64,000 nucleotides of DNA from Stegostoma tigrinum (lineage: Eukaryota), in contig NC_081386.1 in NCBI RefSeq assembly GCF_030684315.1, positions 24,868,827 through 24,932,826 of the forward strand. The letters run 5' to 3'. Below the pieces are notes generated by a model, which saw only the letters and a program-made list of their open reading frames with translations, searched no databases and had not been told where the DNA came from. Of this stretch, positions 21,818 to 56,444 are shown in pieces. Position 1 is the first letter of the stretch, and every line of letters starts with the position of its first letter. A program made the position numbers and the translations under genes.

Positions 21818-21884
21818 AAAGGAAGATGGATCATTGTATATTCCAGGGTTCCTTGGCACATACCATCTAAAAAGTCGTGCAGAA

Positions 21885-22112
21885 GCAAATTACTGCTGAT
21901 ACTGGAATCTGTACTGAAAACAAAAAATGCTGGTGATCACAACAGGTCAGGCCAAATCCATGGAGAGAAAATAAGCTAACGTTTCGAGTCTAGATGACTC
22001 CTCATCAGACCTCTGATGAAAAATCATCTTGAGTCTAAATGTTAGCTTGCTTTCTCTGCATGGATTCTGTCTGACCTGCTGTGATCACCAGCATTTTTTG
22101 TTTGCAGTTCAT
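21885..22112. mobile_element. Palindromic non-autonomous Penelope-derived element with two back-to-back hammerhead cores
   Basis: The inverted arms are centred on ..ctcatcag-acct-ctgatgaa.. (22001-22020). The minus-strand core reads CTGATGA-G-GAGTC-ATCTA-GACTC-GAAACGTT. Confidence 0.75.
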
Positions 22113-22800
22113 CTGAATGTTTTTGTTCCTGATTTACAGCATCCGCAGCTCTTTCATTTTTTATTTAGTATCTGAATGGCCATGTTTGGTCCAGGAAGAA
22201 GTTCCACCTGAATTAGGACCAAAAGAAAATCACATGGCCAACTGGATTTCTGTATTCATCTTGGTTTACATTCTTTGTAACAATAATATTTTATTTGTTA
22301 TAAAACTGTAAGTAGATAAAGGAAATTATTGAACTTGTCTGTTCTGACTATTTTAATCAAAAAATTGTGTTCTGCTGGGATAAATATTATTTGTTGGGTC
22401 AGATCTGGTGACAGATCCATCTCCTGGGAAGTTTAGATTTCTCCAAAATCCACTGGCCAACCCTTCAGTATTCCTCAATCTTTCCTTGTGCTTCTGTTGG
22501 CATTTTCTGAAAGGCCTGCAATGATCCAGATTCCAACAATCCTCCTCGGGGTTCCAGGCTCACCCATGAAAGGAAACATCCACATGAAAAGCATCTAGTT
22601 CAGAAATTTGGCTGATGTGTGATGTCTCAGTCATCTAACATGAAATACTTTTGCCTGATTAAGCCTTGTACTGTGCGCGGGGTGAGAGGGGGGTCCTCAA
22701 TTTACAAACGTCTGACTTTCAAATGCTCATACCTATGAATGCTATCCCATTCATAGGTGTAGTTTTAAAGACCTAACGTACAAACATTTCCTATACTTAC

Positions 22801-23016
22801 AAGATAACAAGGTGCAGAGCTGGATGTACACAGCAGACCAAGCAGGAGCAGGAAAGCTGACGTTTTGGGCCGAGACCCTTCACCATTTTCTGATGAAGGG
22901 TCTAAGCCTGAAATGTCAGCATTCCCGCTCCTAAGATGCTGCTTGGCCTGCTGTGTGCATCCAGCTCTACACCTTGTTAACTCAGATTCTCCAGCATCTG
23001 CCATTCCTATTGTCTC
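22801..23016. mobile_element. Palindromic non-autonomous Penelope-derived element
   Basis: The inverted arms read gataacaaggtgcagagctggatg... and ...catccagctctacaccttgtta. The plus-strand core CTGATGAagggtctaagcctGAAAtgtc is at about 22890. Confidence 0.75.
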
Positions 23017-23619
23017 CTATATTTACAAACTACTTTATTGCATCCTGCGTTGTGTTCCAACTTGCGTACAAATTGACTTGTGAACTGTCTCAAGAATGGA
23101 ACCTATTCACAACCTGGGGACTGCCTGTTTTCAGATTAGTCTGCTGATGATGTGGCTTTTATCACCAAGGTATGCTTTGATCTGTCCCACTAATTTCCTG
23201 CTGCTTTCTGTTCATATATTCTGCATCCCACCTCACCGCACCTCCCTTACCTATAAAAATTGATGTTGCACTGAAGGACCATGTCAAATTGCTCACTGGG
23301 GTAGTTTTACTACTTTCCTCCCTTGGCCTCTTACATTGTAAATTCTCATCTTTGATGAGTAATTTCAATTTCTATCTCAATTCATCTTTCTCCTTGGAAT
23401 TGACTGCCCTTCTTAGTCTCCCCATTGGTACAAATTCCCTTATCCCATATGCACAACCACTCTCTCAACCTTGCCATGTCATGTCACATCTACGCTTTGA
23501 CTGCATCAATCACAGTTAAGGCACCAGAATTATATCCTTTATTGTATGATGCTTCTGTTTGTGCATCGCACACAACTGAACTGTCTTAACTGAAAAGTGA
23601 ACTAGTCCAAATTACACTA

Positions 23620-24210
23620 TCAAAGTCAGACAGTAAGGAAGGTGCATGGGTTGCTTAGCTTTATTGGGCAAATATTGCTGACAAGAGCAGGGATATAATG
23701 CTGGAACGACATAAGACACAGTTTAGGCCACAGCTGGCATATTGAGTACAGTTCTGGTTCCCACAAAACAGGAAGGACATAATTTCTCGAGAGACAATGC
23801 AGAGGAGATGTACAGGAATATTGCCAGAGTTTAAAATTGCAGCTATGAGGAAAGATGAGGAGGCTGAGGGGTGACTTTAGTGAGATGTCCCTAAATAATG
23901 GCGGGGGTTATATTTAGTGGACGCAGAAGAACCAGAGGACACAGACTTAAAGTGATTGGTAGAAGGACGAGAGGGAACGTGAGCAAAATCTCTTTCACCC
24001 AGAATGTAGTGGGTGGCTGGAATTTGATGCCTAGTTTGAATGTTAATATAGAAACATCAACCCATTGAGGAGGAACCTGGATCTACACCTGAAGCATTAT
24101 AATCCACAAGGCCACAGGTCAAGAGCTAGTAAATGGGATTAGAATAGACAGCAGTTTATTCAGCCAGCACCGACACAAAAGAACATATGGCCTCTCTCTG
24201 TGCTGTAATT
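23620..24210 (+). mobile_element. Highly degraded CR1 3' fragment
   Basis: Remnants of RPQLxYxVQFWxP and RRLRGD, then the 3' UTR. Confidence 0.6.
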
Positions 24211-24900
24211 TTCTAGGTGCAATGGAAACATTAGGATGCATGTGTGAAAAAGTCAACCTCTGCATGCTACAATCATGAAAGACAGAAAAACAGATCATGC
24301 TGCAACAATTCTTTATTAATTTTGATGACTATAATTAGCAATGTCAAGGTGGTAAGGGTATCCAGTGCTTGAGCAACAAAGAAATATCAAGCCAGGTAAA
24401 TACCAATTGAACCATTCAGCAGTTCAGGGAATATTTTCCATGATATGGTACGGTTCACTAACTTGCCAGTACATCATTCAAACCAGGGGAACATATGGTA
24501 AAAGGAACCAAAAGTGCTGACAAGCTGACAATGAGTTGTAATGGAAATCATGAGTTTCTGAAAGCAGATGCGAGTAGGGGAGTGACTGCCAGTTATTCCA
24601 AGATGTTTTATATTTACATTTATATTCCTCACCACCTTGTGAATGAATATGATGATTAACTGTGTACAAAATGTGGAAAAACATGAGATTCTTCCTTATA
24701 AAATTTAAGTGTGGCTTGGCCATGTCTATTTCTGCACAAAAAGATTATTTTTGACTTAAGCACTGTGAGATTCGAATACAGGTCATTGTTAAAATTCACG
24801 ATACAATCACGAGAAAGGAAATTTTCCTTCTACATCTAAACTCTCTTATTGTAAAATTGGAAGAACTCAAAGCCCCTCTTCCGATTTGAAAGAATCAACA

Positions 24901-26502
24901 TTACTGAATTTTTTGTTTACTGTTTTGAACAATGCTACAAAGTTTGGTCAACAGTACAACTGTCAGCGCTATAACTATGAGGAACAGTGACAGCAGGAAG
25001 ATCATCACATCTACACAATAGTAAACGTACCAGGGGAGTCGGTAAGACTCTGAGCGTAAATGTGCTGCCCCTTTATGTCGAGCAACATACTCAATCCAGA
25101 AAATAGCTCTCTCCATTGGAGTCTCAGGTTGGTCTCTGTGCAGTGCAGAGAGTTTTTGCATATTCTCCCGATAAGAGGTGTTATGTATAACCTCATTCAG
25201 TGCCTGCAATAGATCTGTTGACCGCATGGTTGCAACATTAATCACTTTTGCTGCACCTCGGATTTCAAGTCGGAGTAAATTATCAAACTGGTCAAAAATC
25301 AATGGCATTCCAACTACTGGCACCCCATGATAGATGGCTTCATAAACTCCATTGGTGCCACCATGGGCAACAAAGACTCGTGTCTTTGGGTGCCCGAGTA
25401 GATCATTCTGAGGGATCCATTTCGCCAGTAGTGTATTATTTCCAATGTTGGGAGGGATTGTTCCGTCATGTCTCCAGATAACTTTCTGAGGTACTTGAGC
25501 AAAGGCCTCTGCTATTTGCATTGTAATATGCATTGGCAAGGAGCTAACAATGGTCCCCAGTGACATGACAATAATCCCATGGTCCCCTGAGGACTGGACA
25601 AACTCTTCAAATTCTAGAGGTAAAGGCTTGGATGGTTTACACTGGAATCCTCCAATATAAACAATATTTGGCATGGTGGGTCTCGGGAATTCAAATATAA
25701 AATCTACTCTCATCAGCAACACATCTGCCCTCAGGAGAACAGTCTCAATGTCTGTATCTGGGCCCAGATAGCGATGGCAGAGATCATTATAAATTGGCTG
25801 AATGAGAAATTTTGAAGTAGTTATCCGAAAAAGATTTAGGAGCAAATTTTGTATTCTTTGCAGAAAACCCATTTTACTTGTAAATTGTGATCCAGTGATT
25901 GGGATATATGAAGGTGGCGATGGGGCAGAGAATAAATGAGCTTCCCCACTGATGAACCATCGAACATTGTACACTAAAGGAATTTTTAAATAATAAGCAA
26001 GCATTGGACCAGTACCAAAAGCAGGATCAGTGAGTACTAAGTCAAAATTTGCATCTTCAAGTTGCCTCAAAACAGCTTTGTTACTGAAAATTGCATTGGT
26101 AAACTCTCCAGCACAACGATGGTATGAATACAAAGCATTCCTAAGCTGATATTGTAGCTGAACAAAGGCCCAAAATGTCAAGCCATTCTTTAAGGCATTC
26201 AAAGTTTTTTGTAGGTATGTTTGTATCAAATTTTCTGTTTTATTTTGGCCAAGGCATTCTTGTAGTTGAACCGTAATAGATTGATATAGATCAGACATCT
26301 CCTTTGTGTACCAGGCTGTGGAGGAATGGAGCACAGTGATGTTGTGTCCATGAAGTTTCAGCTCTTCTATTAATATTCTCATATTAATCCAATGACTTCC
26401 ATCAACAGGAACAACCAAAACATCAACCCCATGGGTAACAGAACAAGACAGAGTAAGAATACATGCAGCCAGTAATCTACATTTCCACCCAGAACACTGC
26501 AT
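24901..26502 (-). CDS. UDP-glucuronosyltransferase with single coding exon (UGT5-like), copy B, 533 aa from ATG 26502
   Basis: It starts MQCSGWKC.. with a signal peptide and has GSHW, LTDP, the full UGT signature, a TM helix and KQKIQ. An acceptor (ttctctgacAG, 26529-26530) lies 26 nt upstream of the ATG, so the longer ORF-track start at 26577 is intronic. Confidence 0.95.
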   Translation of the reverse strand: MQCSGWKCRLLAACILTLSCSVTHGVDVLVVPVDGSHWINMRILIEELKLHGHNITVLHSSTAWYTKEMSDLYQSITVQLQECLGQNKTENLIQTYLQKTLNALKNGLTFWAFVQLQYQLRNALYSYHRCAGEFTNAIFSNKAVLRQLEDANFDLVLTDPAFGTGPMLAYYLKIPLVYNVRWFISGEAHLFSAPSPPSYIPITGSQFTSKMGFLQRIQNLLLNLFRITTSKFLIQPIYNDLCHRYLGPDTDIETVLLRADVLLMRVDFIFEFPRPTMPNIVYIGGFQCKPSKPLPLEFEEFVQSSGDHGIIVMSLGTIVSSLPMHITMQIAEAFAQVPQKVIWRHDGTIPPNIGNNTLLAKWIPQNDLLGHPKTRVFVAHGGTNGVYEAIYHGVPVVGMPLIFDQFDNLLRLEIRGAAKVINVATMRSTDLLQALNEVIHNTSYRENMQKLSALHRDQPETPMERAIFWIEYVARHKGAAHLRSESYRLPWYVYYCVDVMIFLLSLFLIVIALTVVLLTKLCSIVQNSKQKIQ

Positions 26503-27928
26503 GGTGTGAAAAAAATGATATCCAGGTCCTGTCAGAGAATTAAATAGAGGAATTAGTGTTAGGACATAAATTTTCAAAATGATATTTCTGCAGCTTCCAT
26601 CCCCTTAATCTATTCAATACTATGCTTAGACAAAGTTAGATTTGTGACAGCTTTCAGTTGTTAAATCAGAATTCTTAACTCCATACCAATGAATTCTGAG
26701 GAAAGGTCACTCAACCTAAAATGTTAACTCTAATTTCTCTCCACAAATGCTGCCAGACCTGCCGAACTTTCCCAGCAATTTCTATTTTTCTTTTTGATTT
26801 CCAGTGTCTGCAGTTCTTTCAGTTTTTAATGCTGTTGAGTTTGCAGCCTGTGACAAAAATTTAGCAAGTTTTATCAACAGCACCAATAATTTGTATTCCA
26901 TTTATTAATAAATTGCCATAGGAGCACTATAAACCAAAATTTGACACTGAGATATATTTACTGCTTTGGAGCAGATGGCCAAAGAGATAGACTTTCAGAA
27001 ATTACTTAAAGGAGCAAAGAGAGGTAAATGCTTGAGGGAGAGAATGCCACAACTGAGTGCTTATACAGCTACCGATACAGCCAGCAATGGTGGAGCAGTT
27101 AAAATTGGGAGTGTTCAACATTAGAATTACATCAGTGCAAATATCTCCAAGGAATGTTGGATTGGAGTAGAATGGGAAGATAGGGAGGAGTTTAACAAAA
27201 ATGAATGAGAATTATAAAATGGAAGCAACACAGTGTGGAGGTGGAGAAACACAGCAGGCCAGGTAGCCTGAAGAAAGGTCCCAACCCGAAACATCAACTT
27301 TTCTGCTTCTCTGGTGCTGCCTGGCCTGCTGTGTTCCTCCAGCTCCACACTGTGTTATCTCTGACTCCAGCATCAGCAGTTCTTACTATTTCTGAGTGAG
27401 CTATAACCGGACTGTGAAGCCCCCATTTCTGAAGAGGTGTCGCTACCTGAAACATCAACTTTCCTACTTTTCTGATGCTGCCTGGCCTCTGTGTTCACCA
27501 GCTCTACATTGTGTTATTTCTGACTCCAGCAACGGTAGTTCTTACTATTTCTATAAAATTGAGGCATTGCTTATCTAGGAGCCAATGTTAAACAGTGCAT
27601 ATAAAGGTGGTGGGTAAATGGGACTTAGTGAAAATGAGGGCATTGACAGTGGAGTTTTGGATGACCTTCAGTTTATGGATGGTGCAAAGCAGAAAGCTGG
27701 TTAGAGGTGACACGGAAAAATCGAGCCCACAACAAAAACATAGATGAGGGTTCCAACATGGAAGAGCACATAGGCTGTCTTAAAGATGGTATGATGTGTG
27801 ATTGGATGTTCATCTCAAGGTTAAATATGACACCAGGGATGTGAATAGTCTGAGGAAGGTCTCCGGACCTGAAACATTAACTCTCTTTTCTCCTCCACAG
27901 ATGCTGACTTTCGTCTCATGCTTAGTTT

Positions 27929-28153
27929 TGAGCCTAGAACAAATGTTTGCACAACATGACTCTGAATCGAAGCCACTTGGTCACGCCTGTTATCTCATTC
28001 CGCAGTGGCTGGGTCTTATTATGTCATGAAATGCTGTTACCTTTTACTTACAGTTGAACGCCGTAAAAGGTTGTGCGTTGTCGGCGCTTCAAGATTCCCG
28101 GGGAAATGAAATGTTTAGTTTGTGAGAGCAAGAGTTCAAAGTCTAACTGATTT
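27929..28153 (-). promoter_or_regulatory. Duplicated copy (225 bp) of the candidate UGT-B first exon/promoter
   Basis: Direct repeat of 28425-28649, with a GTAAGT donor at 28046-28051 (minus) and DR1 AGTTCAAAGTCTA at 28133-28145. It sits inside a short hammerhead element. Confidence 0.6.
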
Positions 28154-28424
28154 GCCAGCAACTTTGTTTTTGTTCCTGACTTACAGAATCCACAGTTCTT
28201 TTGTTTTTTTTCTGTGAATAGTCTTGTTCAGCCCGATTTTGTGTTGGTGGTGCGTGGGGAAATTACAACCTCATTTGATGGGATTCAGATTTAGGTTTCC
28301 AAGCAAAACAATCAAGGATTTAGGAAGTAATCAATACTCAAAAACATTGGAGAGGAGAAGGAAGTTGGGGACGGGGGTGAAAGAAAAATCTGCAGAGGCA
28401 AGGGCAACAAGGTTTCATTTAAAG

Positions 28425-28649
28425 TGAGCCTAGAACAAATGTTTGCACAACACGACTCTCAATCGAAGCCACTTGGTCACGCCTGTTATCTCATTCTGCA
28501 GTGGCTGGGTCTTATTATGTCATGAAATGCTGTTACCTTTTACTTACCGTTGAACGCCGTAAAAGGTTGTGCGTTGTCAGTACTTCAAGACTCCCGGGGA
28601 AATGAAATGTTTAGTTTATGAGAGCAAGAGTTCAAAGTCTAACTGATTT
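28425..28649 (-). promoter_or_regulatory. Candidate non-coding first exon and promoter of UGT copy B
   Basis: The minus-strand donor ACG|GTAAGT is at 28542-28547, with a FoxA-like TGTTTAGT nearby and DR1 AGTTCAAAGTCTA at 28629-28641. Confidence 0.6.
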
Positions 28650-30043
28650 TGTAATTCTGAACATTTGATTTATTGTTCCTCGAATTGCAAGTCGTCCTGA
28701 CCGTGCATGGCTCAAAGGATAATCTTTATTCTTGACCAGTACTGTTTAGAATGATTATGCCTTGTTTTTCTAAATTGTTACATTTTCGTTTAAATAGCTG
28801 TACATAAAAAATAAGGAGTCGCTGTGGAAATCCAGCCAACAGTAACGGAAACCGCTTGAGACGCTGAATGTCTGTGACTAAAAAGATAAACAAAAACGAG
28901 ACTAAACTGTGATTTATTATCAGAATCTGAAACATTAACTGTTTTTCTCTTTCTACACGTGTGGTTAGATTTGTTGAGTTTTCTCCCCTGAACCTTGGCT
29001 GTTCACCAGATTTCTAGCATCTACAGTGTTTTTCTTTTGATCGTTACGAGGGGACTTGCATAAGAGGTTTTAGGTCCATTCTCCATTCTGGCACAGGGCC
29101 TGATAGTAGCTTTGTGAATGATGGGTTTGAGTTTCCCTACCAACAGCAGATTACACACATGACTTGGCTTCAGAGGTTTTTTTTAAACACTGAGGCATTT
29201 TAACACTTCACAGATGGAGGATGAAGTAGGATCAGAATGTATTTGTCTCTATCAGTTCAGTTCATGAGTTGCTGAGCTATGTCTCTGGGTGTAATTCACA
29301 GCTGACCATGGGGAAACCTGTGTGGAGGAGCTGCAGCTAGGGAGTAATATAACAAGGTGTAGAGCTAATATAACAAGGTGTAGAGCTGGATGAACACAGC
29401 AGTCCAAGCAGCATCAGAGGAGCAGGAAGGTTGAAGTTTGAGGTCTAGACTGGAATGAGTTGCCAGAGGAAGTGGTGGAGGCTGGTACAATTACAACAAT
29501 TAAAAAGCATTTGGATGGGTATGTGAATAGGAAAGGTTTAGAGGGATATGGGCTGAATGCCGGCAAATGGGATTAAATTTATTTAGGAAATCTGATCGGC
29601 ATGGACGATTTGTACCTAAGGGTCTGTTTCTGTGCTGCACAGTTCTATGTCTCTTAACCACTCTCTGCAATGTCCAAAAGCACACTGTTCGACAGCAGTT
29701 AGCAGTAGGCAACAGATAAGACCATAAGATGTAGGAGCAGAATTTGGCCATTCAGCCCACCAGGTATCCTCCACCATTTGAACATGGCTGATGTGTTTCT
29801 TAACCCCATAATCCTTGTCAATTCCTCTGACCTTATCAATCTGCCCCATACAAGAGTAAAATAAACTCTGATAGGTAAGTAACTAGTTCAACTTCTGGCG
29901 ATATTAATCACCACCAATTGAACCAACTACTTTTAGCTGATTAACAGTTAATTGTCAGTTCAATGCTTAGTAACACAATCTACCTTATAGTCATTTGGTA
30001 GTACAGACTTAAGTATTTTTGACAAAAGGCATATTTTGCTGAG

Positions 30044-30188
30044 ATGACAAAGTGTGGAGCTGGATGAACACAGCAGGACAAGCAGCATCTCAGGAGCACA
30101 AAAGCTGACGTTTCGGGCCTAGACCCTTCATCAGATAACTTTGTTATCTTGGATTCTCCAGCATCTGCAGTTCCCATTATCTCTGTTA
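30044..30188 (-). mobile_element. Short Penelope-derived element with intact hammerhead core and 14-bp TSD
   Basis: The TSD CATATTTTGCTGAG is at 30030-30043 and 30189-30202. The core CTGATGA-AGGGTCTAGGCCC-GAAACGTC is at 30107-30134 (minus). Confidence 0.85.
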
Positions 30189-30559
30189 CATATTTTGCTG
30201 AGGCTTTTTAACTTGCACACATCGGAAAATACCAGAGTAAAGGGAAAACAAGATTTGTATTGTATGAGATGAGAGCACTGATTGGTTGGCAAGTGGACTG
30301 TATTGGTCATGGTACTGCCATGAATAATTAACATTAATGTCAGCTGACTGTCAAAGGTTATTTAAATTTTAAACAAAACAGGCTGGCTCTGGTCAAGGCA
30401 TTCTCTAAGAAATGAACTAGAATTGCAGTCACTTGCTTTTAAGTTGAAAATGCATTGTACATGTACATATGTTGGCATACAATGGGGCACTGTGCAATAA
30501 AAGATATAGTTTGCAGCACATGCAAGTGTGTCACATTCTGAGTGTGACTAACAATCATA

Positions 30560-33500
30560 GAGACACCTGATCATGGCCAGAGGGGTCTATCTGCTCAAGC
30601 ATAGATTTCATGTATGTGTCCTGCACATTCTTGGTCAGATCCACTGACATCAAGTCAGTGTTCTTCTCTGACTACTGCCTCCTGCTGGTTGTCTGTCACC
30701 TACAGGATGACCAGTGGGCTGGCAAGGGAATGTGGAAGCTGAATGTGAAACTGTTGACCTCAGAAAACATTGAGGACCTCAAAAGGGATTACACAAGATC
30801 ATGGAGAACCATGAAGCCCCTATTTGAGTCTCCAGCAGACTGGTGGGAGGCAGTCAAAGGGAACATCAAGTGGTTCATTATCCTTAAAGGTGTTCAGAAG
30901 TGAGAGACATGTGAACAAAACTGTCCAAACTCCTGAAAACCATGCAGAACCTTCTCCTCCTGAAGACGATGGGGGTCAATGTCACAGAGGATCTCCAGGA
31001 GGTGAAGAGCCAGCAAGCATTACTTTTTGCCTTCGAGAACTCTAAGATAATCTTCTGATCCAGGATCCACACCCATGGAGCAGGATGAGATGTGTTCGTG
31101 TTCCTTCTTCCAGAAGGTGCACTGGGAAAGCTCTGTGCCCAGCAGCCTGAAGGAAGAAGATGGCTCAGTAATGTTATCTCAGTCTAACATCCAGAGGATC
31201 AGCAGATCCTTTTATGCCAGACTGTATGACATGAAGGTCACGGAGAGTGCAGGCTCCCAGTTGTTCCTGTCCTCTACCACAGAGGCCTAAGACTGCCGCA
31301 TATGGGAGAGGCTGGACAAAGGATGGATGAGCTGACCAAGGCCATCAAGCCCTTAGAAAAGAATAAAACTCCCAGAAGTGATGGCTTAGTGGCCGAGTTG
31401 CTTTCGGCTCTGTGGGACTTGATTGACCAGGGCCTGCTGGTGATGTATGACAGTACGTTTCTGGCAGGTACCATGTGCTAATTCACAAGGAAAAGTATCA
31501 TCACCCTCAGCTACAAGTGGAAGGTGGGGAGGGAGGAAATTGGAAACTGGAAACCAATATCATTGTTGAATGCAGACTACAAAATCCTGTCTAAGGTCAT
31601 CAACAACTGGGTTAGGTCTGCTCTGGGATCAGTGATTCACTCCAACCAAACCTGTGCTGTACAATCTCAGAGAGCCTCATGGTCCTCAGGGATATGATTG
31701 TCTACATGCAGGACAGGGGGATGGACATCTGCCTCGTCAGCTTGGATCTGGAAAAGGCCTTTGACAGGATATCATACACATACATGTGGGACGTGATCCC
31801 TGAAATGAGACTTGGGGAGGGAATCTACAATTGGATCCAACTGCTCTACTCCAACATAGTTAGTGCAGTCTCAATCAATGGGCGGGAATCAGAAAGCCTC
31901 CCATTCAGATCCATTAAGGTCGGCCTGCCTACTCTCTCCTGTCTTGTCTGTGTGTTTTATAGAGCCTATTGCTGAGTCCATCAGGAAGGATGTGAGCCGG
32001 AGAGGGGTGACTATTCCTGGCAGCGGAGGCCTGCAGCTCAAAGCCTCCCTGTACATGGATGACATCACTGTTTTCTGCTCGGATCCACCATCAGTTTGCA
32101 GGCTCCAGATCATCTGTGACCAGTTTGAGCTGGGCTTAGGAGCCAAGGTAAGTCAAGGCAATAGTGAGGCCACGGATAAGACAGTGTGGAGCTGGAGGAA
32201 CAGCAGGCCAGGCATCATCAGAGGAGCAGGAAAGCTGATGTTTTGGATCAAGATCCTTCTTCAGAAAATTGTCCCGACCCGAATCGTCAGCTTTCCTGCT
32301 CCTCTGATGCGGCTTGGCCTGCTGTGGTCCTCCAGCTCCACATTGTGCTATCTCTGACGCCAGCACTGGCAGTTCTTACTATCTCTAAGAGTGAGGCCTT
32401 GTTCTTTGGGAACTGGGCTGACAGTTTCTCATTCACTCGCATCAGGCCAAGTTACCTGAGGGTGCTGGGAATATAGTTTGCAGGGTCCGGGGTGTGCACA
32501 AAATCTTGGGAGGAGTGCATCACAAAAGTGAAGCAAAACCTGGTCCTTTAGGAGGACCGCTCATTCTCCATTGCAGATGACAAGCTGTGAGGGACTCTCT
32601 CTGTTGTTGTATATGGTGCAGGTCTGGCCCATCCCTCAAAACTACGCTTGTTCTGTCACCTGAACCATCGCTCATTTCATCTGGAAACCAAAGATAGTCC
32701 GTGTCTGCAGGGATGCCATGTACAAAACACTGATAAGCTGGGGAATAATGTACCCAACATCGCCCTCAAGCTGATGGTCACCCTTGAGTGTGGCTGCATC
32801 AAGCTGTGTGTAGACCCACAGTATGCAAGCACCAAGTGTCACAACATACTGAGGTTCTGCCTGTTCCCTGTGTTGCAAGGGAAGGGTCTGGCCTTGCTGC
32901 CGTGGAACGCTCCAAGTAGTTGGACTGTTCTGTACTACCTATCCTTCAGAGAAATTTGAAAGAAAAGCACCTTTGACCACAAGGGCATCAGGAAGTGGTC
33001 AGCACATAGCATCCTTGAAACCCTGAGGAAAGAAGAGAGGATGGATCCTGTCATGTGGTTCCCTGAGCAGACTGTCAGAGTCAATTGGCAGAATGCCTCA
33101 TCACCAGAACTTTCTAACAAGCACCAAAGCATCATTTGGCGGGTGGTGAGAAGGTCACTACCTGTGAGATCCTTTATCTATGCCCGGTCAGCCTGCATCA
33201 TCACACACTACCCTTGAAGCAGCTGTGGGGGAGGGAGCGGGGGTGGGGGGGGGCGTGGGGGAGTGGTGTTGAAACTGTCACATATCTCCTGTTAGAATGT
33301 GCCTTTGCAAAGAAGTCTGAAGAAAGATGCAGTGGATTTTGTTGAGGTTGATCCCGAGCGGTTCCATTACGTGGGACTCTGTTCTCTATAGTCTATTCTT
33401 TGGGATGCACATCGAGACAAACATTAACTGTGCCTGGAGGACCATCAATTCAGTGAAAGATGCTCTTTGGTCTGCCCAAAACTTGTTAGCCTTCCAAAAC

Positions 33501-33870: not shown

Positions 33871-34344
33871 GTTGGTTGTTCACATAATTCTTTGCACACT
33901 CAGCTTTACATAGCAAATTTTGCTCAATCACAGAATCACATCTAATATTTGACATAGTGATGTGAATTTTGGAAGCACAGGCTGAATTTGTGTGCTTGGT
34001 ATCTTGCCTGTTTGAACAGCTGAAGGGATGTACTGCTTGATATGTTCAGCAATGGCACACACATCTTACATATCCAGCATCAAACTGGCACTGAACTTTA
34101 TATAACCCATTACTCATTTATTTGCCAGGCAAATGCCTTTTTGACTTGACGGCAACATCCTGTTAGTGATGTATACCACTTTTGTTGCAACTGCAGAGCA
34201 GTAGCATGAAACAGCAACTTGTTGCTCATAACTTTCCAGATGCCGCATCCGTCCAGTAAATTCTGAGGTAGACCGGGCACTTTTCAGGATCAAATGTACT
34301 GGCCTTAGTCTCATTCATGATTTTGCACTATCGGTAGTGAGAAA

Positions 34345-37300
34345 TAGAGTCATAGAGTGGTACAGCATGGAAACAGCCCCTTCAGTCCAACTTGTACATT
34401 CTGACCAGATATCCTAAATAAATTAAGCCTCATTTGCCAGCATTTGGCCAATATCCCTCTAAACCCTTCCTATTCATGTACCCCTCCAGTTGCCTTTTAA
34501 ATGTTGTAATTGTACCAGCTCCATCACTTCTTCTGACAGCTCATTCCATAAACGCACCACTCTCTGTGTGAAAAGGTTGCCTCTTAGGTCCCTTTGAAAT
34601 CTTTCCCCTCTTACTTTAAACCTATGAGCTCTAGTTTTGGATCCCCTACTCTAGGGAAAATAAAACTTATCTATTCACCCCATCCATGCCCCTCATAATT
34701 TTATAAACCTCTATATCCCAGCCTCTTCAGCCTCTCCCTGTAGCTCAAACACTCCAACCCTGACAAAATCCTTGTAAAACTTTTCTGAACCCTTTCAAGT
34801 TTCATAACGTCCTTCCTATAGCAGGGAGACCAGAACTGCACACAGTATTCCAAAAATAGCCTCACCAATGTTCTGTCCAGCTGCAACATGATGTTCCAAC
34901 TCCTATACTCAATGCAAAGACCAATAAAGACAAACATACCAAACACCTTCTTTGCTATCCAATCTACCTGCAACTCCACATTCAAGGAACCATGAACCTG
35001 CACCCTAAGGTCTCTTTGTTCAGCAACACTCCCCAGGACCTTATCATTAAGTGTACAAGTCTGGCCCTGATTTGCCTTTCCAAAATGCAGCACCTCACAT
35101 TTAAGGTCTAAATTAAACTCCATCTGCCACTCCTCGGTCCATTGGCCCATTTGATCCCATTGTACTCTGAGATAACCTTCTTCACTATCCATTTCAGTAC
35201 CAATTTTAGTGACATCTGTAAACTTACTAACCATCCCTCCTATGTTCACATCCACAACATTTATATAAATGACGAAAAGCAGTGGACTCAGCACCAATCC
35301 TTATGGCACACTGCTGATCACAGGCCTCCAGTCTGAAAAGCAACCCACCACCACCCTCTGCCTTCTACCTTTGAACCAGTTCCGTATCCAAGTAGCTAGC
35401 TCTCCCTGTATTCCATGTGATTTAACCTCATTAACAAGTCTACCATCAGGAACCTTGTCCACATGGATTGCTTCGACTGCTCTGCCTCATCAATCCTCTT
35501 TGTTACTTCTTCAAAAAGAAGGTTGAAGTTAGTGAGACACAATTTCCCGTGCACAAAGCCATGTTGACTATTGCCAATCAGTCCTTGAATTTCCAGTACA
35601 CGTAAATCTTGTCTTTCAGGAGTCCTTCCAACAACTTACTCACTACCGATGTCAGGCTCACAGGTCTATAATTCCCTAGCTTTTACTTACCACCCTTCTT
35701 AAACAGTGGCACCACATCAGCCAACCTCCTGTCTTCTGGCTCCTCACCTGTGGCTATCGATGATAGAAATATCTCAGCAAGGGGGCCAGCAATCACTTCC
35801 CTAGCTTCCCACAGAGTTCTAGGGTATACCTGATCAGGTCCTGGAGATTTATTTATCTTTATGCTTTTCAAGCCATCCAGCAGCTCCTCTTCTGTAATAT
35901 TGACATTTATCAAGATGTTATTTATTTTCCCAAGATTTCTGTTTGCCATATCTTACTCCACAGTAAACAATGATGCCAAATACTTGTTTAGTATCTCCCC
36001 CATCTCCTGCAGTTCCACAGGTAGGCAGCCTTACCGATCTATAAGCAGCCCTATTCTCTCCCCAATTACCCTTTTGTTCTTAATGTGTTTGCAGAATCCC
36101 TTTGCATGCACCTTAACCCTATTTGCCAAAGCTGCCTGATGTTCCCTTTTTACCCTCTTGATTTACCTCTTAAGTATACTCCTAATGCCATTATACTCTT
36201 CTAGGGATTCACTTGACCTCTGCTGCCTATACCTGACATATGCTTCCTTCTTTTTCTTGACCGAAACCTCAATTTCTCTCATCCCTCTACCTGCAAACAT
36301 CCACCCCCCAATCAACTTTTGAAGGTTCCTTCATAATACTGTCAAAGTTGGCTGTCTCCATTATAGAAATTTAACTTTCAGATTCAGCCTATCATTTTCC
36401 ATCAATGTTTTAAAACTAATGGAATAATGGTCACCGGCCCCAGTGTGCTCCCACACTGACACCTCAGTTACCTGCCTTGCCTTATTTTAGGTCAAACTTT
36501 GCACTTTCTCCAATAGGTACATCCAGACACTGAATCAGAAAATTTTCTTGTACACACTTAACAGCATCCAAGCCCTTAACACTACGTCAGTCCCAGTCTA
36601 CGTTTGGAAAGTTAAGATCCCCCACAATAACCATTCCTCACAAATTTGTTTCTCAATTTCTTGCTTACTATTGGGGGCACTGCAATAAAATCCACTTAAG
36701 TTTATCATCCCTTTCTTGTTTCTTAGTTCCGCCCAAATAACTTCACTGGAAGTATTCCCAGGCATATCCTCCCTAAGTATAGCCGTAATGTTATCCGTCA
36801 TCAAAATCACCAATCTCCCTCCTCTCTTGCCCTCCTTTCTATTCTTCCTATAGCATCTATACCTTGGAACATTATCATAGAATCATAGAAACCCGACAGT
36901 GTGGAAACAGGCCATTCAGCCCAACAAGTCCACATCACCCCTCCAAACAGCATCCTGTGCAGACCCATTCCCCTACCCCTGCATTTCCCATGTCTGACCC
37001 ACCTAACCTAAACATCCCTGGGCAATTTAGCACACCTAATCCACCTATCCTGCACATCTTTGGACGCTGGGAGGAAACCAGAGCACCTAGAAGTAACCCA
37101 TGCAGACACAGAGAGAATGTGCAAACTCCACACAGTTTGCTAGCCCAGCGACAACAACAATGCACCATTGCTTCCCCCCTGCCAGTCCTGTCCATCCCTG
37201 AATCACATCTCTGTAATTGCCATGATATCTCAGTCCCAACCATGCCCTGTGTTTATCTGCCTTTCATGTTAGGCTCCTGCATTGAAATATATGCAGTTTA

Positions 37301-37870
37301 ATTGATCAGTCCCACTTCATTCTCTGCTTTGTTCCTGCCTGCCCTGACTGTTTGACTTGCTCCTTTTCCCAACTGTACTAGCCTCAGACTGGTCTCTTTC
37401 CTCACTATCTCCCTGGGTCCCATTCCCGCCCTCACCCCCTTACAAATGTAAATCCTCCCAAGCAGCTCTAGTAAAACTCTCTGCCAATATATTAGTCCCC
37501 TTCCAATTCAGGTGCAATCCATCCTTCTTATGCAAGTCACTTCTACCCCAGGACAGATTCCAACGGTGCAAAAACATGAATTCTACTCCCCTGCCCCAGC
37601 TCCTCAGCCACACATTTATTGGCTGTATCCTCCCACTCCGACCCTCTCTAGTTTGTGACACCAGGAGTAATCTAGATATTACTACCCTCGAGGATCTCCT
37701 TTTTAAATTCCTGCCTAACTTCTCATATTCTCTCCTTAGAATCTCATCCTTTTCTCTTTCTATATTATTAGTTCCAATGTGTACAATGACGTCCTGATGA
37801 TCGCTCTCCCCTTTGAGAATATTCAGCACGCTGTCTAATATATGCTTGATCTCAGTACCAGGGCGGCTAA
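34345..37870 (-). mobile_element. Degraded CR1 LINE (ORF1 esterase to 3' UTR), interrupted by a SINE
   Basis: ORF fragments 34701-35297 (RT), 35683-35949 (KSPGPD), 36598-36813 (endonuclease) and 37440-37829 (HIGTNN, DGLHLN). Confidence 0.88.
36876..37135 (-). mobile_element. HE1/V-SINE fragment
   Basis: V-domain motif GGAGTTTGCACATTCTC...TGCATGGGT and a CR1-like tail. Confidence 0.75.
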
Positions 37871-49952: not shown

Positions 49953-51102
49953 TCGAAAAGGTAGATGTTTGATGAACCAACACAGACACAATGGGCTGAA
50001 ATGCTTTTTCTCATGCTTTTAAAAATTTTATGACTATCTATAAAATGATGGGACTTATTGATTGGTGAGGAGGTGGTAAAGTTCTGATCACAGGGCAGAC
50101 ATAATTCATGGGCCCAGTGCAACTCTGCCTGGCTGGCTGGCCAGCCTCCTGGCTGCACCCACCCTTCCAGCCTGGCAGACCTTCTGGACCTCTGGGGTTG
50201 AGTTATTGGTTTTAGAGGAATGTGCATGCTAGAATCAGAAATATGAACAAAAAGTGCTGGACAAAATTAGTAGGTTTGGCAGCACCTGTAAAGACGGAAA
50301 CAGAGCTAACATTGTGAGTACAGTTTTCTTTGGAAACTGGACTCAACATTAACTGTTTCTAACTCAACAGATGCTCCTAGATGTGTTGAGTTTGTCCAGC
50401 ACTTTGTTTTTCTTCCTGGTTATTGATCTAGTTGCCGTAAGACCTGGGGAAGGCTGCGAACTAAGTTAATGGAAAATTCTAACTGATTGCATGGTGTCAT
50501 CACATTATCATCTGTGTACAATGTTGCAGTCCCATGCCATTAAGCCATCTGAAACTCCAAGGCTATGTATCCTAAGTTTTCCCTCATGTGACTCTTGCTT
50601 CTTTTGTCAATTATTTTTAAATCAATGTCTGTGGTTTTCGTGTTGACCAGTCTATGATTTTGACTTAACGTCTAATGCTAGAAGTCTGAAATAAAAATAG
50701 GAAGTCAAAGGCTGGTTAACCAGCATCGAAAGGGTAAGTTAATATTTCCAGTTGTACACTTCAAATCTCAGATTTATTCAGTCACATTGAAAGATTTGAT
50801 TAGTTACTATGAATGTTGGAATTCAGAAATAAAAACAAAATGCTAGACATATTCAGCAGGTCTAGTAGCATCTGTTGAGAGAAAAACATAGATGCTTCCA
50901 GAACTGCTGCAAATTTCCAGCATTTTCTTTGTTCATCTTGTTTTGTATATGATTTTCTTCTGTAGTAGTTTACTTTTTTGTGGTGCTTTTGTGTCTTTGA
51001 AAGGTCGAAGGAGGCATTCCATGAAATGCAGGTATTTCCATTAAATACTGAAGTAGCTTTTCTTTGAAGGTAGCATTTCATGTTACTTTCATATGAGCCA
51101 AG

Positions 51103-51186
51103 ATGGATCAGAAGATTTTGGATTTGGCAGCAGCTGAGGATTGTCAAGGACTGCTGCAGCTCCTGCAGCGCATGAAAGAACAGGAG
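51103..51186 (+). CDS. FANCI: FANCI coding exon 1 (MDQKILDLAAAEDCQGLLQLLQRMKEQE)
   Basis: Matches the FANCI N-terminus MDQKIL. It has a strong Kozak context (gccaagATGG) and a GTGAG donor. Confidence 0.93.
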
Positions 51187-51870
51187 GTGAGCAACTTACT
51201 TTGTCTTCTGTAATGCAACATTGAGGTCTGTAAAAATGTAATTACTTTCAATAAATCATTTTGAAGTTTAAATAAAATGTTTATAATGTATTGCATTCAA
51301 ATATATTAATTTAGTTTAAAGGAACATGTATCAGAATTTTGTCCTAAACAAAATGCTGGAAATCTATACTAAGAAAAATATACTGGCAATAAGTACCAGG
51401 GCTTACAATATCTATGGAGCCAGTTCAGAGACCCAAAACATTAACTCTGCTTTCTCTTCCAGCAATTTCTCTTTCAGTAACTCTTGCTGAGTATTTTCAG
51501 CATTTTATGGTTTTGTTTCAAAATATTTTCATCTTTTTTGAAACAAGTTTGAATATTATTGAGAAAGTACTTTACTGCCTAGTTTAGTCCCATCTTTTAT
51601 GAACGTAATCCCTCCAGGTTCTGGAAACATTTCAGGGGCTTTTCACAGGCAATCCAGTATGCATGTATAAAAAGTTCCAACTAATTTCTGTTTGTATTTG
51701 TTTCAAAAGGGTTTAATTCCTTATAGAAAAGGAATGTGTACACAAGTGTGAGTTTGTGAATGAGATACTTATGTCAAATTCAGGCTAATATCTACTCTGC
51801 CCCTTGTTTTACTTAGTGTTTAATTAGTTAACAGTCTGAAATTACAATTTGAGTGTTGCTTTTGTTACAG

Positions 51871-51943
51871 ATTGGTGCCCTAATAACACGGTATGCCTTG
51901 AAAGGGAAGGAGACTGGAATGCTCATGAGAGCTATTTTTAAAG
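51871..51943 (+). CDS. FANCI: FANCI coding exon 2 (IGALITRYALKGKETGMLMRAIFK)
   Basis: AG/GT bounded, 73 nt, homologous to KGK..GALLRAIFKG. Confidence 0.92.
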
Positions 51944-52455
51944 GTTGGTGCTCAATTGTAAATAATTTTTGTGTATTACATTCCAGTTTTAGCATGCAGC
52001 AGATTAATGCATTCCATTCATCATCTCATCACCTTGTGTTTGGTTGGAATAAATGCATGTTGATCAGTTTACAGTGTATAGAAAGAAAATATTTATTTTT
52101 CAGCAATGTAATTATTGTAAAATAGTTTTGAAGACAAATGAAAATGGCATCTACTGATTTAAGACCAATGTGTGCACCTACTGAGTAGTAAATAAATGAA
52201 AGAAATATATTTATAGCAATTACCCTTAATCCAGCAATATATGTGCCCTACTGTGAATCAGTTAGCAAATTGTAGACCACAATGTGCTTATTATAAACAG
52301 CACTGAAAGAAGGCTAAATCTGAAGCTATTCCCTGGATTTGAAACAATTGTATGCAATCTCTCTGCAGCACCTGATCCCCCACCTCTTAATGAGTGAATT
52401 CCTAGAAGTTAAGTGCTGATCAAGTATGTCTTGTCCTTTTGTTTCTCCTTTACAG

Positions 52456-52586
52456 GTTCTCCTTGTTTATCAAAAGAAGGGGTTTGTCTGAGGCTTTTTG
52501 TTTACAAACATTGTATGCAATTAGTTGAATCAGGGGACCTACAATCAGATGTGGCAACAGACATGATCGGTTTGCTGATGCTTGAG
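52456..52586 (+). CDS. FANCI: FANCI coding exon 3 (GSPC...QLVESGDLQ...IGLLMLE)
   Basis: AG/GT bounded, 131 nt, frame-consistent. Confidence 0.94.
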
Positions 52587-53824
52587 GTAAATTGTGGCTT
52601 TGCCTGTCTTTATGATCAAGTAAAGTAATGATGCTTGAATTATTTACATTCAGGCATCTTTGTTTATTATCTAGCCCCAGGTCCCATTCCACTCTCCAGC
52701 TCAGAAGCCAGTTCACAAAACAATATCTCTTAGTGCTAAGAAGAGAGATCTGTTATTTAAGGATATAAGATTTTATGTTTGAAATGTAGTCATGTTTTTG
52801 GATTAAGATTCTGCTTTTGCAGCTACACTTTCTATTAATCCCTGAAAATTTACACAGAGTATCACGTAAAGTGATACATTTTTCATGCTGACAATAATTT
52901 GAGAATATTAATGAAATGGAATTTTGTTTTGCTTGTAAAAATAAAAACTTTTGGATGTCCCAGTTGATAATTCTGAGTCTATGTAAGATAATGATCTACA
53001 AAGTAATTGTCCACGAAGTGAATGATTAAAATCCTAAAACACACACATTACAATCGGAGGAATCAAGTAGAATTGTGCCTATGAAAGTATGCTAGAGTTA
53101 TAGTTAGTTCATTGGTAAAGTAAACAAGGCATAATGGTTTCAGAGAAAAGTGCACATTTCTAGTGAGAGAAGGGAATGTGATGAGAAAACTGGGGGAGCG
53201 GTGGAGATCCATCGTGAGTTTATGTTGGCCTGAAAAATGTTTGAATTTAGATTCAATTCTGATTTTTCTTTTAGGTTCTCTTATTGACATTGTTGTTACT
53301 TGCTTACCTATTCTCCATACAGGTATCATTATATAGGGAAGCACTAGAGTCCAAGCTTTCTGTAAAGAGGGCACGAAGGAATTTATAACAAGGGTAAACG
53401 TTTTAAAGTTGGAGTCATTAGAGGATTTAAACCTGATGTTGCTCTGAAAAGACAGTGATGATATCTGAGTTGTACCTGGTGTAGCAAAGGGTATAAATGG
53501 CAGTTTAACAAGTTTGCGAGAGGGAAGACTGGCTTGGAATCCAGTGTAATCATCAAGTGGCTCCATTGAAATGGTAGTAGCAATATTAACTGCTAGTAGA
53601 AAGTTCTTAACATTTCTTGCGTCTGAGTTGCCTTACTGTTGGACAGAATGCCGTACAGCATCATGTTAATTAAATTTTCACGAGTTGTCCTGTGCTTCTG
53701 AGCATAAAGTGTTGATATAAGGATTTAACAATATGAAATTGTGGGTATTGGGGCATAGATAATTTGCAAAATCTAATGTGAACTGTGTACATTATGTGCT
53801 CTGAGTCTGAAGGCTTCTTTTTAG

Positions 53825-53978
53825 GCTCATCAACTCACAGGAGCTGCTGCAGCTGAACTGGCAAGCCTGTATGTGGATGCGATCAAGGGGGGAAGCATTA
53901 TCAACGGCAAATCATTGGATCTTTTTCCTACAATACTTACTGTTTTGGCTTCCCAAGAAAGCCTCGATTATGGTGGCG
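53825..53978 (+). CDS. FANCI: FANCI coding exon 4 (AHQL...NGKSLDLFPTILTVLA...YGG)
   Basis: AG/GT bounded, 154 nt. Confidence 0.93.
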
Positions 53979-54150
53979 GTAAGGAAAATTTAAAGAATAT
54001 TTCATATTTGCTCCTCAGTGCATTTATTGGTGTATATATGTCTTCTTTTTTGAACTTGTTTAAGCAACCTTATCATGTTGGTAATATAGCCTGTGTAAGC
54101 CGTCTGTAACATATAATTTTACATATTTTTGTTTTCTTTCTGTTTACTAG

Positions 54151-54208
54151 GTGACTTGAATGGAGAAGAATACAAGAAGCAACTAATCAACACCCTATGT
54201 TCCAGCAG
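54151..54208 (+). CDS. FANCI: FANCI coding exon 5 (GDLNGEEYKKQLINTLCSS-R), GC donor
   Basis: 58 nt. The donor AG|GCAAGT is required to keep frame with the next exon. Confidence 0.9.
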
Positions 54209-54820
54209 GCAAGTAGCAACATGTTTGACTAATATAAAGTGACATATCATTAGATAGCAATAACTTAGGAAATTCGATCAAAAAGCAATTGTGAACATGA
54301 GAATATCCATGGAACCAAAGGATTTCTTTGGAATTTAAGATTACTTCTTGACAAATTCAGTTGCAGTGCTCTTCTTCCCTATCTCTTCTAAAACTTTGAG
54401 ATCATGTGGAGTACTGTTCTGTGGATGCCAGCATCCACTGATTAAGGTGTCCAATTAATCTGTCCTTATGCCTGTGCTAAAGAGTTAGTGTAGACAGGCT
54501 GTCAAATGATGGAAGTCTGATTCTTTCCTCTCCAACATCTGAGCAAACCTTCTCTAACAGAGGGTCAGTGCGGGCTAATCAGTAATTGCATCAGAACTCC
54601 TTAATTCAGGGTGTTGAGACTAGTTATGGTGCTGCCTAAGTACTGCATGGGCCACAATCAGCTGACTTTACTCAGGTTAGGAATGCCACATGAAAGTCAT
54701 TCTGAAGTAAATTATTCTGCATGTATATTAAGCAAACTTCTCCATTAGATTCCAGCCTACTCTGTACTTCTAGGTACATAATTTTGTTTCTGTTTTTAAG
54801 TACTTTCTTTTATTTTCCAG

Positions 54821-54862
54821 ATGGGATCCAAAATGTGTCATTCACCTCACATCAATGTTTAG
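54821..54862 (+). CDS. FANCI: FANCI coding exon 6 (WDPKCVIHLTSMF-R)
   Basis: AG/GT bounded, 42 nt. Confidence 0.92.
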   Translation: MGSKMCHSPHINV

Positions 54863-54971
54863 GTAAATTTATTTTGATCAGTTCAATGACTAAAAAGGAA
54901 CATTCTGTTGAATTGAATTTCAGGAGATAAAAGTTAAACATGTCCGTTCTTCTTTATTCTCCTCCCTACAG

Positions 54972-55095
54972 GGATGTACCACTGAGTATAGAAGAACTTC
55001 AGTTTGTTATGATGAAAGTGCTGAGAATGTTCCCCAAGTTGGACTTGCAGGAACTGCCTCCACTTGTCTATCAGTTGCTTCTTCTCTCCGCTAAG
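54972..55095 (+). CDS. FANCI: FANCI coding exon 7 (DVPL...[17 protein letters not shown])
   Basis: AG/GT bounded, 124 nt. Confidence 0.94.
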
Positions 55096-55339
55096 GTAAG
55101 GTGAAAGAACCCATATTCTCGTAATGATTTGCAGCAAGACTTGATCATCTTAGAAAACTTACTTTCTTCAGTGTCGAAGATCACATGATGTGGGGCACGG
55201 CTTCAAAGCGATGATTGAAACTTTAATAAATATGGCCTGGCTAAATATTGATGAGAAAGTACAGTTGTTATTCATTGTGCACGATAAAGATTACAGGAAA
55301 GATGTCTACCTCCTAACTTTGTGATTTTTCTTTATATAG

Positions 55340-55425
55340 GGTTGTAAGAAAACTCTTTTAGAAGGGATTGTTACATTCTTCCATCGACAGGATCAGTTGC
55401 AGAAAGAAGAACAGACGGGAACCGA
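55340..55425 (+). CDS. FANCI: FANCI coding exon 8 (GCKKTLLEGIVTFF...EEQTGT-E)
   Basis: AG/GT bounded, 86 nt. Confidence 0.92.
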
Positions 55426-55639
55426 GTGAGTTGTCATTATTATTCATGTGACAGCAAGAGGGCATTACATTGGAGTCTGTTCCTGACCTTGTCTGATAGA
55501 TTTTCGCATGTGGGTAACTTCAGATCATGAATATTCCTTGTCTTTCCGTCACACGTAAATATGCGCCCCTGCTTCTTTCTGTTTTAAAAGTATGTCAGAG
55601 ATTGCAAGATCTGCTATTTACTTGACCCAGTCTGTGTTA

Positions 55640-56444
55640 AGCAGAGGTTCACCTGCACATCTGCCAATGTGGTATACTGCATCCACTGTACCCGGTGCGG
55701 CTTCCTCTACATTGGGGAAACCAAGCGGAGGCTTGGGGACCGCTTTGCAGAACACCTCCGCTCAGTTCGCAACAAACAACTGCACCTCCCAGTCGCGAAC
55801 CATTTCCACTCCCCCTCCCATTCTCTAGATGACATGTCCATCATGGGCCTCCTGCAGTGCCACAATGATGCCACCCGAAGGTTGCAGGAACAGCAACTCA
55901 TATTCCGCCTGGGAACCCTGCAGCCATATGGTATCAATGTGGACTTCACCAGTTTCAAAATCTCCCCTTCCCCCACTGCATCCCTAAACCAGCCCAGTTC
56001 ATCCCCTCCCCCCACTGCACCACACAACCAGCCCAGCTCTTCCCCCCCACCCACTGCATCCCAAAACCAGTCCAACCTGTCTCTGCCTCCCTAACCGGTT
56101 CTTCCTCTCACCCATCCCTTCCTCCCACCCCAAGCCGCACCCCCAGCTACCTACCAACCTCATCCCACCTCCTTGACCTGTCCGTCTTCCCTGGACTGAC
56201 CTATCCCCTCCCTACCTCCCCACCTACACTCTCTCCACCTATCTTCTTTACTCTCCATCTTCGGTCCGCCTCCCCCTCTCTCCCTATTTATTCCAGTTCC
56301 CTCTCCCCATCCCCCTCTCTGATGAAGGGTCTAGGCCCGAAACGTCAGCTTTTGTGCTCCTGAGATGCTGCTTGGCCTGCTGTGTTCATCCAGCCTCACA
56401 TTTTATTATCTTGGAATTCTCCAGCATCTGCAGTTCCCATTATC
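55640..56444 (+). mobile_element. 5'-truncated young Penelope-like element in a FANCI intron
   Basis: GIY-YIG ORF 55669-56094, nearly identical to 41660-42426. A hammerhead core is at 56319-56346 and a TSD, TCTGTGTTA, at 55631-55639 and 56445-56453. Confidence 0.9.

Follow-up and report, generated by a model that had tools for sequence, protein, structure and literature searches.

Minimal type I hammerhead ribozymes were previously described by Cervera and De la Pena in the pseudo-long terminal repeats (pLTRs) of Penelope-like elements (PLEs), mostly as single motifs from truncated copies, with additional pairs on opposite strands (PMC4209133). For endonuclease-bearing (EN+) PLEs, a tail of 30 to 40 bp at one end of the inverted pLTRs has been published (PMC3846280, PMC8557442). 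In this study, hammerhead cores were analyzed in a stretch of 64,000 nucleotides from Stegostoma tigrinum (assembly GCF_030684315.1, contig NC_081386.1, positions 24,868,827 to 24,932,826, forward strand), referred to as the window. As read from their sequence and setting, the cores correspond to the minimal hammerheads already known from pLTRs of EN+ PLEs, and the solo and palindromic copies of 100 to 230 bp are probably 5'-truncated insertions of these elements, each generated singly when the element inserted itself.

The cores resemble those of PMC4209133 in the type I core, the unpaired base after A9, G10.1-C11.1, the palindromic substitute for helix III and the pLTR location, in occurring mostly as single motifs with opposite-strand pairs 100 to 700 bp apart, and in forming several consensus families per genome. 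They differ in having a helix II of 5 bp and a helix I of only 2 to 4 bp; the available part of that report names no shark and describes no 5' boundary at the core. With published EN+ PLEs (PMC3846280, PMC8557442) the insertions share head-to-head copies, a one-sided tail, palindromic junctions, target-site duplications (TSDs) of variable length, partial tandems and solo pLTRs, whereas here the pairing of one long with one short end was counted (54/58), the arm sequences point to a template common to both and thousands of pLTR-only insertions were found. PAc, a PLE of Anolis (Frangieh et al. 2024, PMC11167929), is similar in that its tail, located about 100 nt beyond the hammerhead, is bounded by two internal reverse transcriptase (RT) start sites, the hammerhead lies near the start of the open reading frame (ORF), and cutting and extension in vitro affect both strands of the target. 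However, PAc is a member of the Poseidon clade with an ORF beginning in stem II, whereas here the N-terminal reading seen in one old copy starts after the tail; cleavage of the PAc hammerhead needs protein and is dispensable in vitro.

Coordinates were counted from C3 of CUGANGA (position 0), which places predicted cleavage between +27 and +28 in family A, and copies were grouped by the sequence 3' of the core into families labeled A to F. An initial annotation of the window had listed about 20 copies. Its six clearest cores were indeed intact: CUGANGA, GAAA-CG-UH and a stem II of 5 bp were all present, with C3 at 22008(-), 30134(-), 39451(-), 42336(+), 49948(-) and 56319(+). Among all 20, 7 kept every core base and only 6 kept stem II as well; at site 43732 the core bases were complete and the first stem II pair was broken. 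Twelve of the 14 sites called decayed were recognizable as cores with 0 to 3 core mismatches: one each at 10360, 11288(-), 22890, 27268, 27429 and 27850, two each at 26696, 32264(-) and 46686, and three each at 44941 and 46427. The others were partial: at 22013 stem II and GAAA are garbled, and 4320 is a + strand remnant that has lost the 5' half of its core. The stem II variants GGGUC/GACCC, GGGUC/GGCCC and GAGUC/GACUC were all found. A minimal-hammerhead descriptor gave 9 matches in the window, against a mean of 0.25 and a maximum of 1 in 60 Markov shuffles. An Rfam scan of the window returned no hammerhead family at E<=5; microRNA-like matches at 27234 and 32217 were discarded, being the pLTR palindromes themselves.

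The cores at 39451, 42336, 43732 and 56319 form the 3' end of PLE bodies, and in an unselected sample of 1.14 Mb (17 blocks of 50 kb plus 6 more blocks), PLE-bodied copies accounted for 75/114 core-bearing copies of family A, 18/58 of B+C and 6/43 of D. With 2/5 copies of family F scored by eye, PLE-bodied copies were present in families A to D and F. Genome-wide, 49,704 of 89,060 exact young cores continued directly into PLE upstream (body) sequence. The ORF at 40756-41940 had two Pfam matches that stayed under the curated cut-off, to RVT_1 with E 0.004 and to GIY-YIG with E 0.008, and its translation contains the linker and endonuclease residues CNHRKCYTC, CTQC, EH and NH, matching the CX2-5CxxC linker and CCHH endonuclease that mark the layout of Neptune/Nematis PLEs (PMC8557442). 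In 11/30 tail-extended loci the tail ran on into a shared 5' region, and one old copy (84% identical) showed the pLTR followed by the ORF N-terminus and RT motifs, with no endonuclease seen. Core-bearing PLE bodies, a PLE ORF and a tail leading into the ORF start together show that the core is the hammerhead that Cervera and De la Pena reported from pLTRs (PMC4209133). The suggestion that the copies are extremely truncated and inverted Penelope insertions was thus supported by collinearity with PLE bodies, genome-wide upstream continuity and the end structure of the pairs. Their proposed mobilization by the RT/GIY-YIG of the window was not: the window copies are 5'-truncated remnants, and the ORF at 40756-41940 lacks its N-terminal part and therefore cannot be the mobilizer. 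Older PLE bodies were also observed at 2873-3880(+) and 11724-12733(-), with about 65% DNA and 53% protein identity to the young ORF; 2873-4448 may be a single family D copy.

The 3' ends of young arms were bimodal, at about +88 to +98 (near +92) and about +125 to +130 (near +129). Head-to-head pairs, of which 234 arms gave 58, ranged from 89 bp to 3.1 kb, included 39324-42424 and 30044-30188, and combined one long and one short end far more often than expected by chance (54/58; binomial p 1e-12). The small palindromes and the 3.1-kb PLE pair have a common anatomy, with 3' ends outward, a variable TSD, and one tailed and one short end. A TSD was found in 49/58 pairs by a search that tolerated 1 mismatch and overshot the ends by 1 to 3 nt; 46 of these were 12 to 20 bp, mostly 13 to 17 bp. 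Solos with a TSD terminated at either 3' end site, and tail-only arms exist. For the three short units named in the initial annotation, TSDs of 14 bp (30044-30188), 9 bp (32172-32389) and 18 bp (45841-45954) were confirmed, although 45841-45954 begins inside loop II and lacks CUGANGA; only 21910-22111 and 22802-23016 approach the claimed palindrome with a core on each strand, and one core is damaged in both. Being short and non-coding, with inverted ends and TSDs, such copies could pass for miniature inverted-repeat transposable elements (MITEs) of DNA transposons containing the motif by chance. That explanation is negligible, as the annotation had supposed: TSD length is variable, the ends of pairs are unequal, a continuous size series leads up to RT/GIY-YIG-bearing pairs, and the copies are collinear with PLE ORFs.

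The 5' ends were also clustered. Of the 97 young arms (identity of at least 90%, from 228 arms reaching +60), 37 started at -5 to +13, none at -44 to -6 and 22 over -643 to -45, while 21 started beyond the reference and 17 further downstream. The match of short copies to family upstream sequence fell to background level beyond -4 in A, -3 in B+C and -5 in D. In PLE-bodied copies of four families, a TATA-like box lies at -33 to -36 from C3. TATA boxes usually lie about 30 nt before the start site, which itself tends to follow initiator consensus motifs, and the bases around -4 (CCATTTC, TCAGTTC, CCTCTCT) fit motifs of this type. A 5' boundary at the core with a TATA-like box about 30 nt upstream suggests that the RNA starts at about -4, the first base of stem I, and that cDNAs run off there; stem I of D and F begins at this position. 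A splice acceptor was rejected as the cause of the boundary, since short copies share no upstream exon. Base -5 was G in 4,821 copies versus A or T in 2,302 (ratio 2.1, expected 0.36); a copied cap, as known from L1, would leave such a G. TSD-defined solo starts, obtained for 17/220 cores, were too few to rely on, and false stops of an ungapped upstream walk at -1 and -88 (a subfamily variant and an indel) were excluded from the counts.

Palindrome junctions differed between loci. Genome-wide, 6,242 core-to-core palindromes were found, with many junction types among 50 listed, and the junction pattern of the palindrome at 30107 had 2 matching places. A few junction types recurred at the 5' hot spot, as independent joining there would give, and the same junction in many copies, the mark of a self-propagating palindrome family, was not observed. 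The arms, by comparison, were closely related within each pair: they differed by 2.9% versus 7.6% in shuffled pairs (29 pairs), agreed at the diagnostic site +82 in 29/29, and had 19 rare variants in common versus 0.7 expected (12 long pairs). Since junctions differ between loci and arms share rare variants, each palindrome was likely built anew from one template, as a one-off insertion product and not as a MITE-like spreading unit.

The probable course of insertion can be set out in steps. The core lies in the pLTR, 3' of the RT/GIY-YIG ORF and, in tandem copies, 5' of the ORF start. The first base of stem I, about 4 nt ahead of CUGANGA and about 30 nt behind the TATA-like box, would be where transcription begins. 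The element protein would nick both target strands 12 to 19 nt apart, as the findings on PAc (PMC11167929) and the bimodal ends suggest, and each nick would prime reverse transcription at its own internal site, one about 92 nt and the other about 129 nt after C3. Both cDNAs would be copied from the same template, and priming in the pLTR at the RNA head would lead to 5' run-off after 95 to 135 nt. Joining the cDNAs head to head would yield a palindrome that is short at one end and tailed at the other, and a solo would result when one arm was tiny or lost. The hammerhead would show weak cleavage, either in dimeric form or aided by protein. A further reading, which we advance tentatively and with rather less than even confidence, is that integration in these families is double target-primed reverse transcription on a single mRNA starting exactly at stem I. 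The two target nicks would prime at two fixed internal sites, and thousands of stubs would be fossil run-off cDNAs whose ends map the cap site at -4 and, less strongly, the site of cleavage at +28.

Several observations weigh against the stepwise scheme. Four of the 58 pairs broke the long-short rule (three short-short, one long-long), and gene conversion, or two RNAs transcribed at one locus, could also account for the variants shared between arms. No full-length intact source was seen in a search through the tail-extended loci, which yielded short tandems in 11/11 fetched. In addition, perfect zero-spacer palindromic junctions were numerous. These would also be given by fold-back, in which a single PLE cDNA snaps back at or near the hammerhead hairpin, serves as its own template and is resolved at the second of the two end sites, so that the 5' hot spot marks a structure and not an RNA start. 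Fold-back would likewise explain why both arms share one template and why AG or AGAG is added before CTCT; CUGAUG and CGUCAG can form an extended hairpin ending at C3, and self-priming has been proposed for rotifer PLE palindromes (PMC3846280). When 30 loci with G at -5 were read, A preceded it in 20, it sat within an inverted arm in most and it lay inside the TSD in 2; it is therefore mostly part of AG before CTCT, which fold-back or microhomology fits as well as a copied cap. Fold-back is nevertheless unlikely. Either arm may reach further 5', tail-only arms occur and TSD-flanked solos end at either site, indicating that both sites were primed from target nicks. The 5' boundary also tracks the spacing of the TATA-like box in four families, and the anole PLE cuts and extends both target strands in vitro (PMC11167929).

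The further objections concern the possibility that most short copies came from a separate non-autonomous RNA, resembling a short interspersed element (SINE) or retrozyme, that starts at the hammerhead and is mobilized in trans by the PLE protein. Most core-bearing copies of the older families are short (D 37/43), as a separate short family would give, and because the Penelope promoter of D. virilis is internal and TATA-less (PMC2377424), a stub starting at +1 could be transcribed, which keeps this possibility alive. Retrozymes without long terminal repeats (non-LTR retrozymes) that are related to pLTRs have been reported, including in one chondrichthyan, with a mean length of 363 bp (bioRxiv 10.64898/2026.07.22.740005). 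The window itself holds a direct tandem of family C, whose 161-bp junction (27268/27429) has 5 matching places genome-wide, of which two are separated by 163 bp; a variant of this junction also occurs in the sample. The 11 tail-extended loci that were fetched (of 30) were all direct tandems with units of about 250 to 600 bp. We regard this origin as improbable for the bulk of the copies, as palindrome junctions are not propagated, the junctions of the mini-tandems differ among the 11 loci, just 3 copies in 1.14 Mb have PLE 5' sequence after the tail, and short and long copies have subfamily variants in common. Same-strand neighbors within 700 bp numbered 11 among 220 cores, 7 of them of mixed families, so direct tandem hammerhead units were found for 27268/27429 and a small class and not for most copies.

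The tandems are alike to non-LTR retrozymes (PMC7229834; bioRxiv 10.64898/2026.07.22.740005) in carrying a type I hammerhead in short pLTR-related units, and they match them in size. Those retrozymes, however, are direct tandem repeats, whereas most copies here are solos or head-to-head pairs, in which two same-strand cores per transcript are impossible. The idea of a ribozyme-bearing non-autonomous family thus fails for most copies, whose junctions vary by locus and whose families A to D and F include PLE-bodied members, and may hold for the small tandem class of 250 to 600 bp. All 11 mini-units (L223-L233) keep at least about 95 nt of the PLE 5' region after the tail, which may be a cis element needed for mobilization; in L230, this region abuts the base that immediately follows the cleavage site. 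At G000:C20:58976855-58977042, two family C junctions lie 163 bp apart, indicating at least a trimer of the 27268-27552 unit.

Helix II has 5 pairs in all families, with G10.1-C11.1 and the unpaired base after A9 present. Its pair 4 is U-G in A and U-A in C and D, pair 2 is A-U in E, and pair 5 is A-U in 3/5 F copies; independent changes that keep pairing were few. Helix I is 4 bp in D (third pair in 28/43) and F, where the first pair changes from U-A to C-G in 3/5 copies, and only 2 bp in A, B and C, with a third pair in 1/114 A copies; the second pair is C-G, U-G or U-A by family. The palindromic CG-UH residues in place of helix III were present in 52/87 matches of the descriptor in other contigs, most others being CpG-decayed. 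A type III topology, in which the upstream AUC would be cleaved, was rejected, as the intervening CCCCUCU is unable to form stem I. When the six window exemplars were folded, the full hammerhead was the minimum-energy fold in none, and constrained energies were not comparable because downstream pairs were omitted.

Between families, loop II and the spacer 3' of the core differ, but the core itself is retained. Within family A, no excess core conservation was seen (0.89 to 1.0 per position, 0.78 at CpG), these values being biased upward by selection of the copies on the core. It is likely that the hammerhead is under selection in source elements and that genomic stubs decay neutrally. Small PLE hammerheads are said by Lunse et al. 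in 2017 to cleave as dimers. In head-to-head pairs the cores are on opposite strands, which makes a cis dimer impossible. Published minimal PLE hammerheads show poor cleavage, in dimeric form or aided by protein (PMC4209133, PMC11167929), and 1/9 Xenopus hammerhead dimers cleaved (bioRxiv 10.64898/2026.07.22.740005). With comparably stringent flank filters, copies starting at +28, the first base after GUC, numbered 981 versus 349 at +27 and 320 at +29. Of 100 listed +28 starts, about 40 belonged to one fold-back microhomology class, leaving a roughly twofold excess over two control positions only, which gives a hint of hammerhead cleavage.

The window's core density is ordinary for this genome: the descriptor matched once per 7.1 kb in the window and 87 times in 850 kb of other contigs (once per 9.8 kb; shuffles 0 to 4). 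Across 3.2 Gb, the exact young 31-mer core had 89,060 copies and a wider pattern found 116,264 intact cores, each with 0 control matches, compared with about 4,000 in coelacanth and about 9,000 in X. tropicalis (PMC4209133). The annotation's major ribozyme reservoir therefore stands as a motif count; its members are candidate ribozymes, the copies showing no sign of selection on the core and stem I of the commonest family having only 2 bp.

Copies of pLTRs and PLEs in the window and their features
Feature	Coordinates	Strand	Details
5'-truncated young (family A) PLE	55637..56447	+	GIY-YIG remnant; pLTR with core 56319-56346; long tailed 3' end
TATA-like box TATTTAT	56285..56291	+	34 nt before C3; putative RNA start ~56315; promoter role inferred
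3.1-kb head-to-head PLE pair	39324..42424	both	15-bp TSD at 39308 and 42427; left arm (-) with core 39424-39451 and long tailed end; right arm (+) with core 42336-42363 and short end
PLE ORF remnant	40756..41940	+	C-terminal RT (YIDD), CX4CxxC linker, GIY-YIG with CCHH; N-terminal part missing
Mini-palindrome, family A	30044..30188	both	Short-end arm (-), intact core 30107-30134; tail-only arm (+); 14-bp TSD
Mini-palindrome, family B/C	32172..32389	both	Short-end arm (-), decayed core, C3 32264; long-end arm (+) begins in loop II; 9-bp TSD
Solo stub, family A	45841..45954	-	Begins in loop II; long end; 18-bp TSD
Mini-palindrome, family B	22802..23016	both	Short-end arm (-); long-end arm (+), core 22890; imperfect ~13-bp TSD
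Mini-palindrome, family E	21881..22111	both	Tailed arm (-), intact core 21978-22008; short arm (+), garbled core 22013; no TSD found around it
Family C tandem	27227..27552	both	Inverted short arm, then two direct units, cores 27268 and 27429, 161 bp apart, joined via ~30 nt of PLE 5' region; imperfect TSD; retrozyme-like
5'-truncated copy, family A	43636..43860	+	Core 43732, broken stem II pair; long end
Solo, family B	46686..46812	+	Begins within core; 10-bp TSD
Solo, family D	10356..10488	+	Begins 4 nt before core (10360); 12-bp TSD
Solo, family D	27850..28213	+	Begins at core; interrupted by ~240 bp of other sequence; 12-bp TSD
Solo, family D	49815..49952	-	Intact core, C3 49948; best stem I of the window (4 bp); no TSD found around it
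Decayed solo, family D	26692..26828	+	Core 26696
Decayed solo, family D	44938..45075	+	Core 44941
Decayed solo, family D	46425..46530	+	Core 46427
Remnant, family D	4315..4448	+	TATA-like sequence upstream; 5' half of core deleted
Solo, family E	11192..11290	-	Short end; G12 changed
Stub, family B	29369..29450	-	Begins in stem II; short end adjoins 21-bp local duplication; absent from the initial annotation

More decayed pLTR palindromes or stubs with no recognizable core were seen at 50246-50410, 50807-50936, 43355-43441, 44227-44305 and 22118-22154. Elsewhere in the window, two uninterrupted UDP-glucuronosyltransferase ORFs, 5485-7134(-) and 24901-26604(-), measuring 549 and 567 aa between stops and matching Pfam UDPGT with E ~1e-160, are apparently single-exon paralogues, and a stretch duplicated at ~2185 and ~4301 suggests local duplication. 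A tRNA-Arg(ACG) gene lies at 47586-47660(-). Frameshifted RT remnants of the long interspersed element (LINE) type lie at 14584-18450(-), 34701-37877(-) and 19208-21293(+), with RVT_1 matches for two ORFs; from their motifs we take them to be probably CR1-like and RTE-like. A partial 5S rRNA-like sequence at 49375-49480(+) (Rfam E 0.075, under the gathering score) is possibly a 5S pseudogene or a SINE head.

A PLE expansion has been noted in a whale shark preprint (10.1101/443036). A literature search, incomplete in coverage, found no report of shark PLE hammerheads, of the start-site boundary or of twin priming, and supplements may list these families. As the motif, the pLTR location and the inverted one-tailed layout are all published, the finding itself is ordinary. 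Its possible importance lies in mechanism, since open questions surround both PLE integration and the role of the hammerhead (PMC11167929, PMC8557442). The roughly 116,000 intact cores make the predictions countable: two priming sites used once each per insertion, one template, a start at stem I and minor ends at the cleavage site. If the further reading of double priming on one mRNA is true, the ribozyme, placed at the mRNA head, would be a 5'-decapping switch, and the stubs would for the first time document in a genome that PLE hammerheads cleave in vivo.

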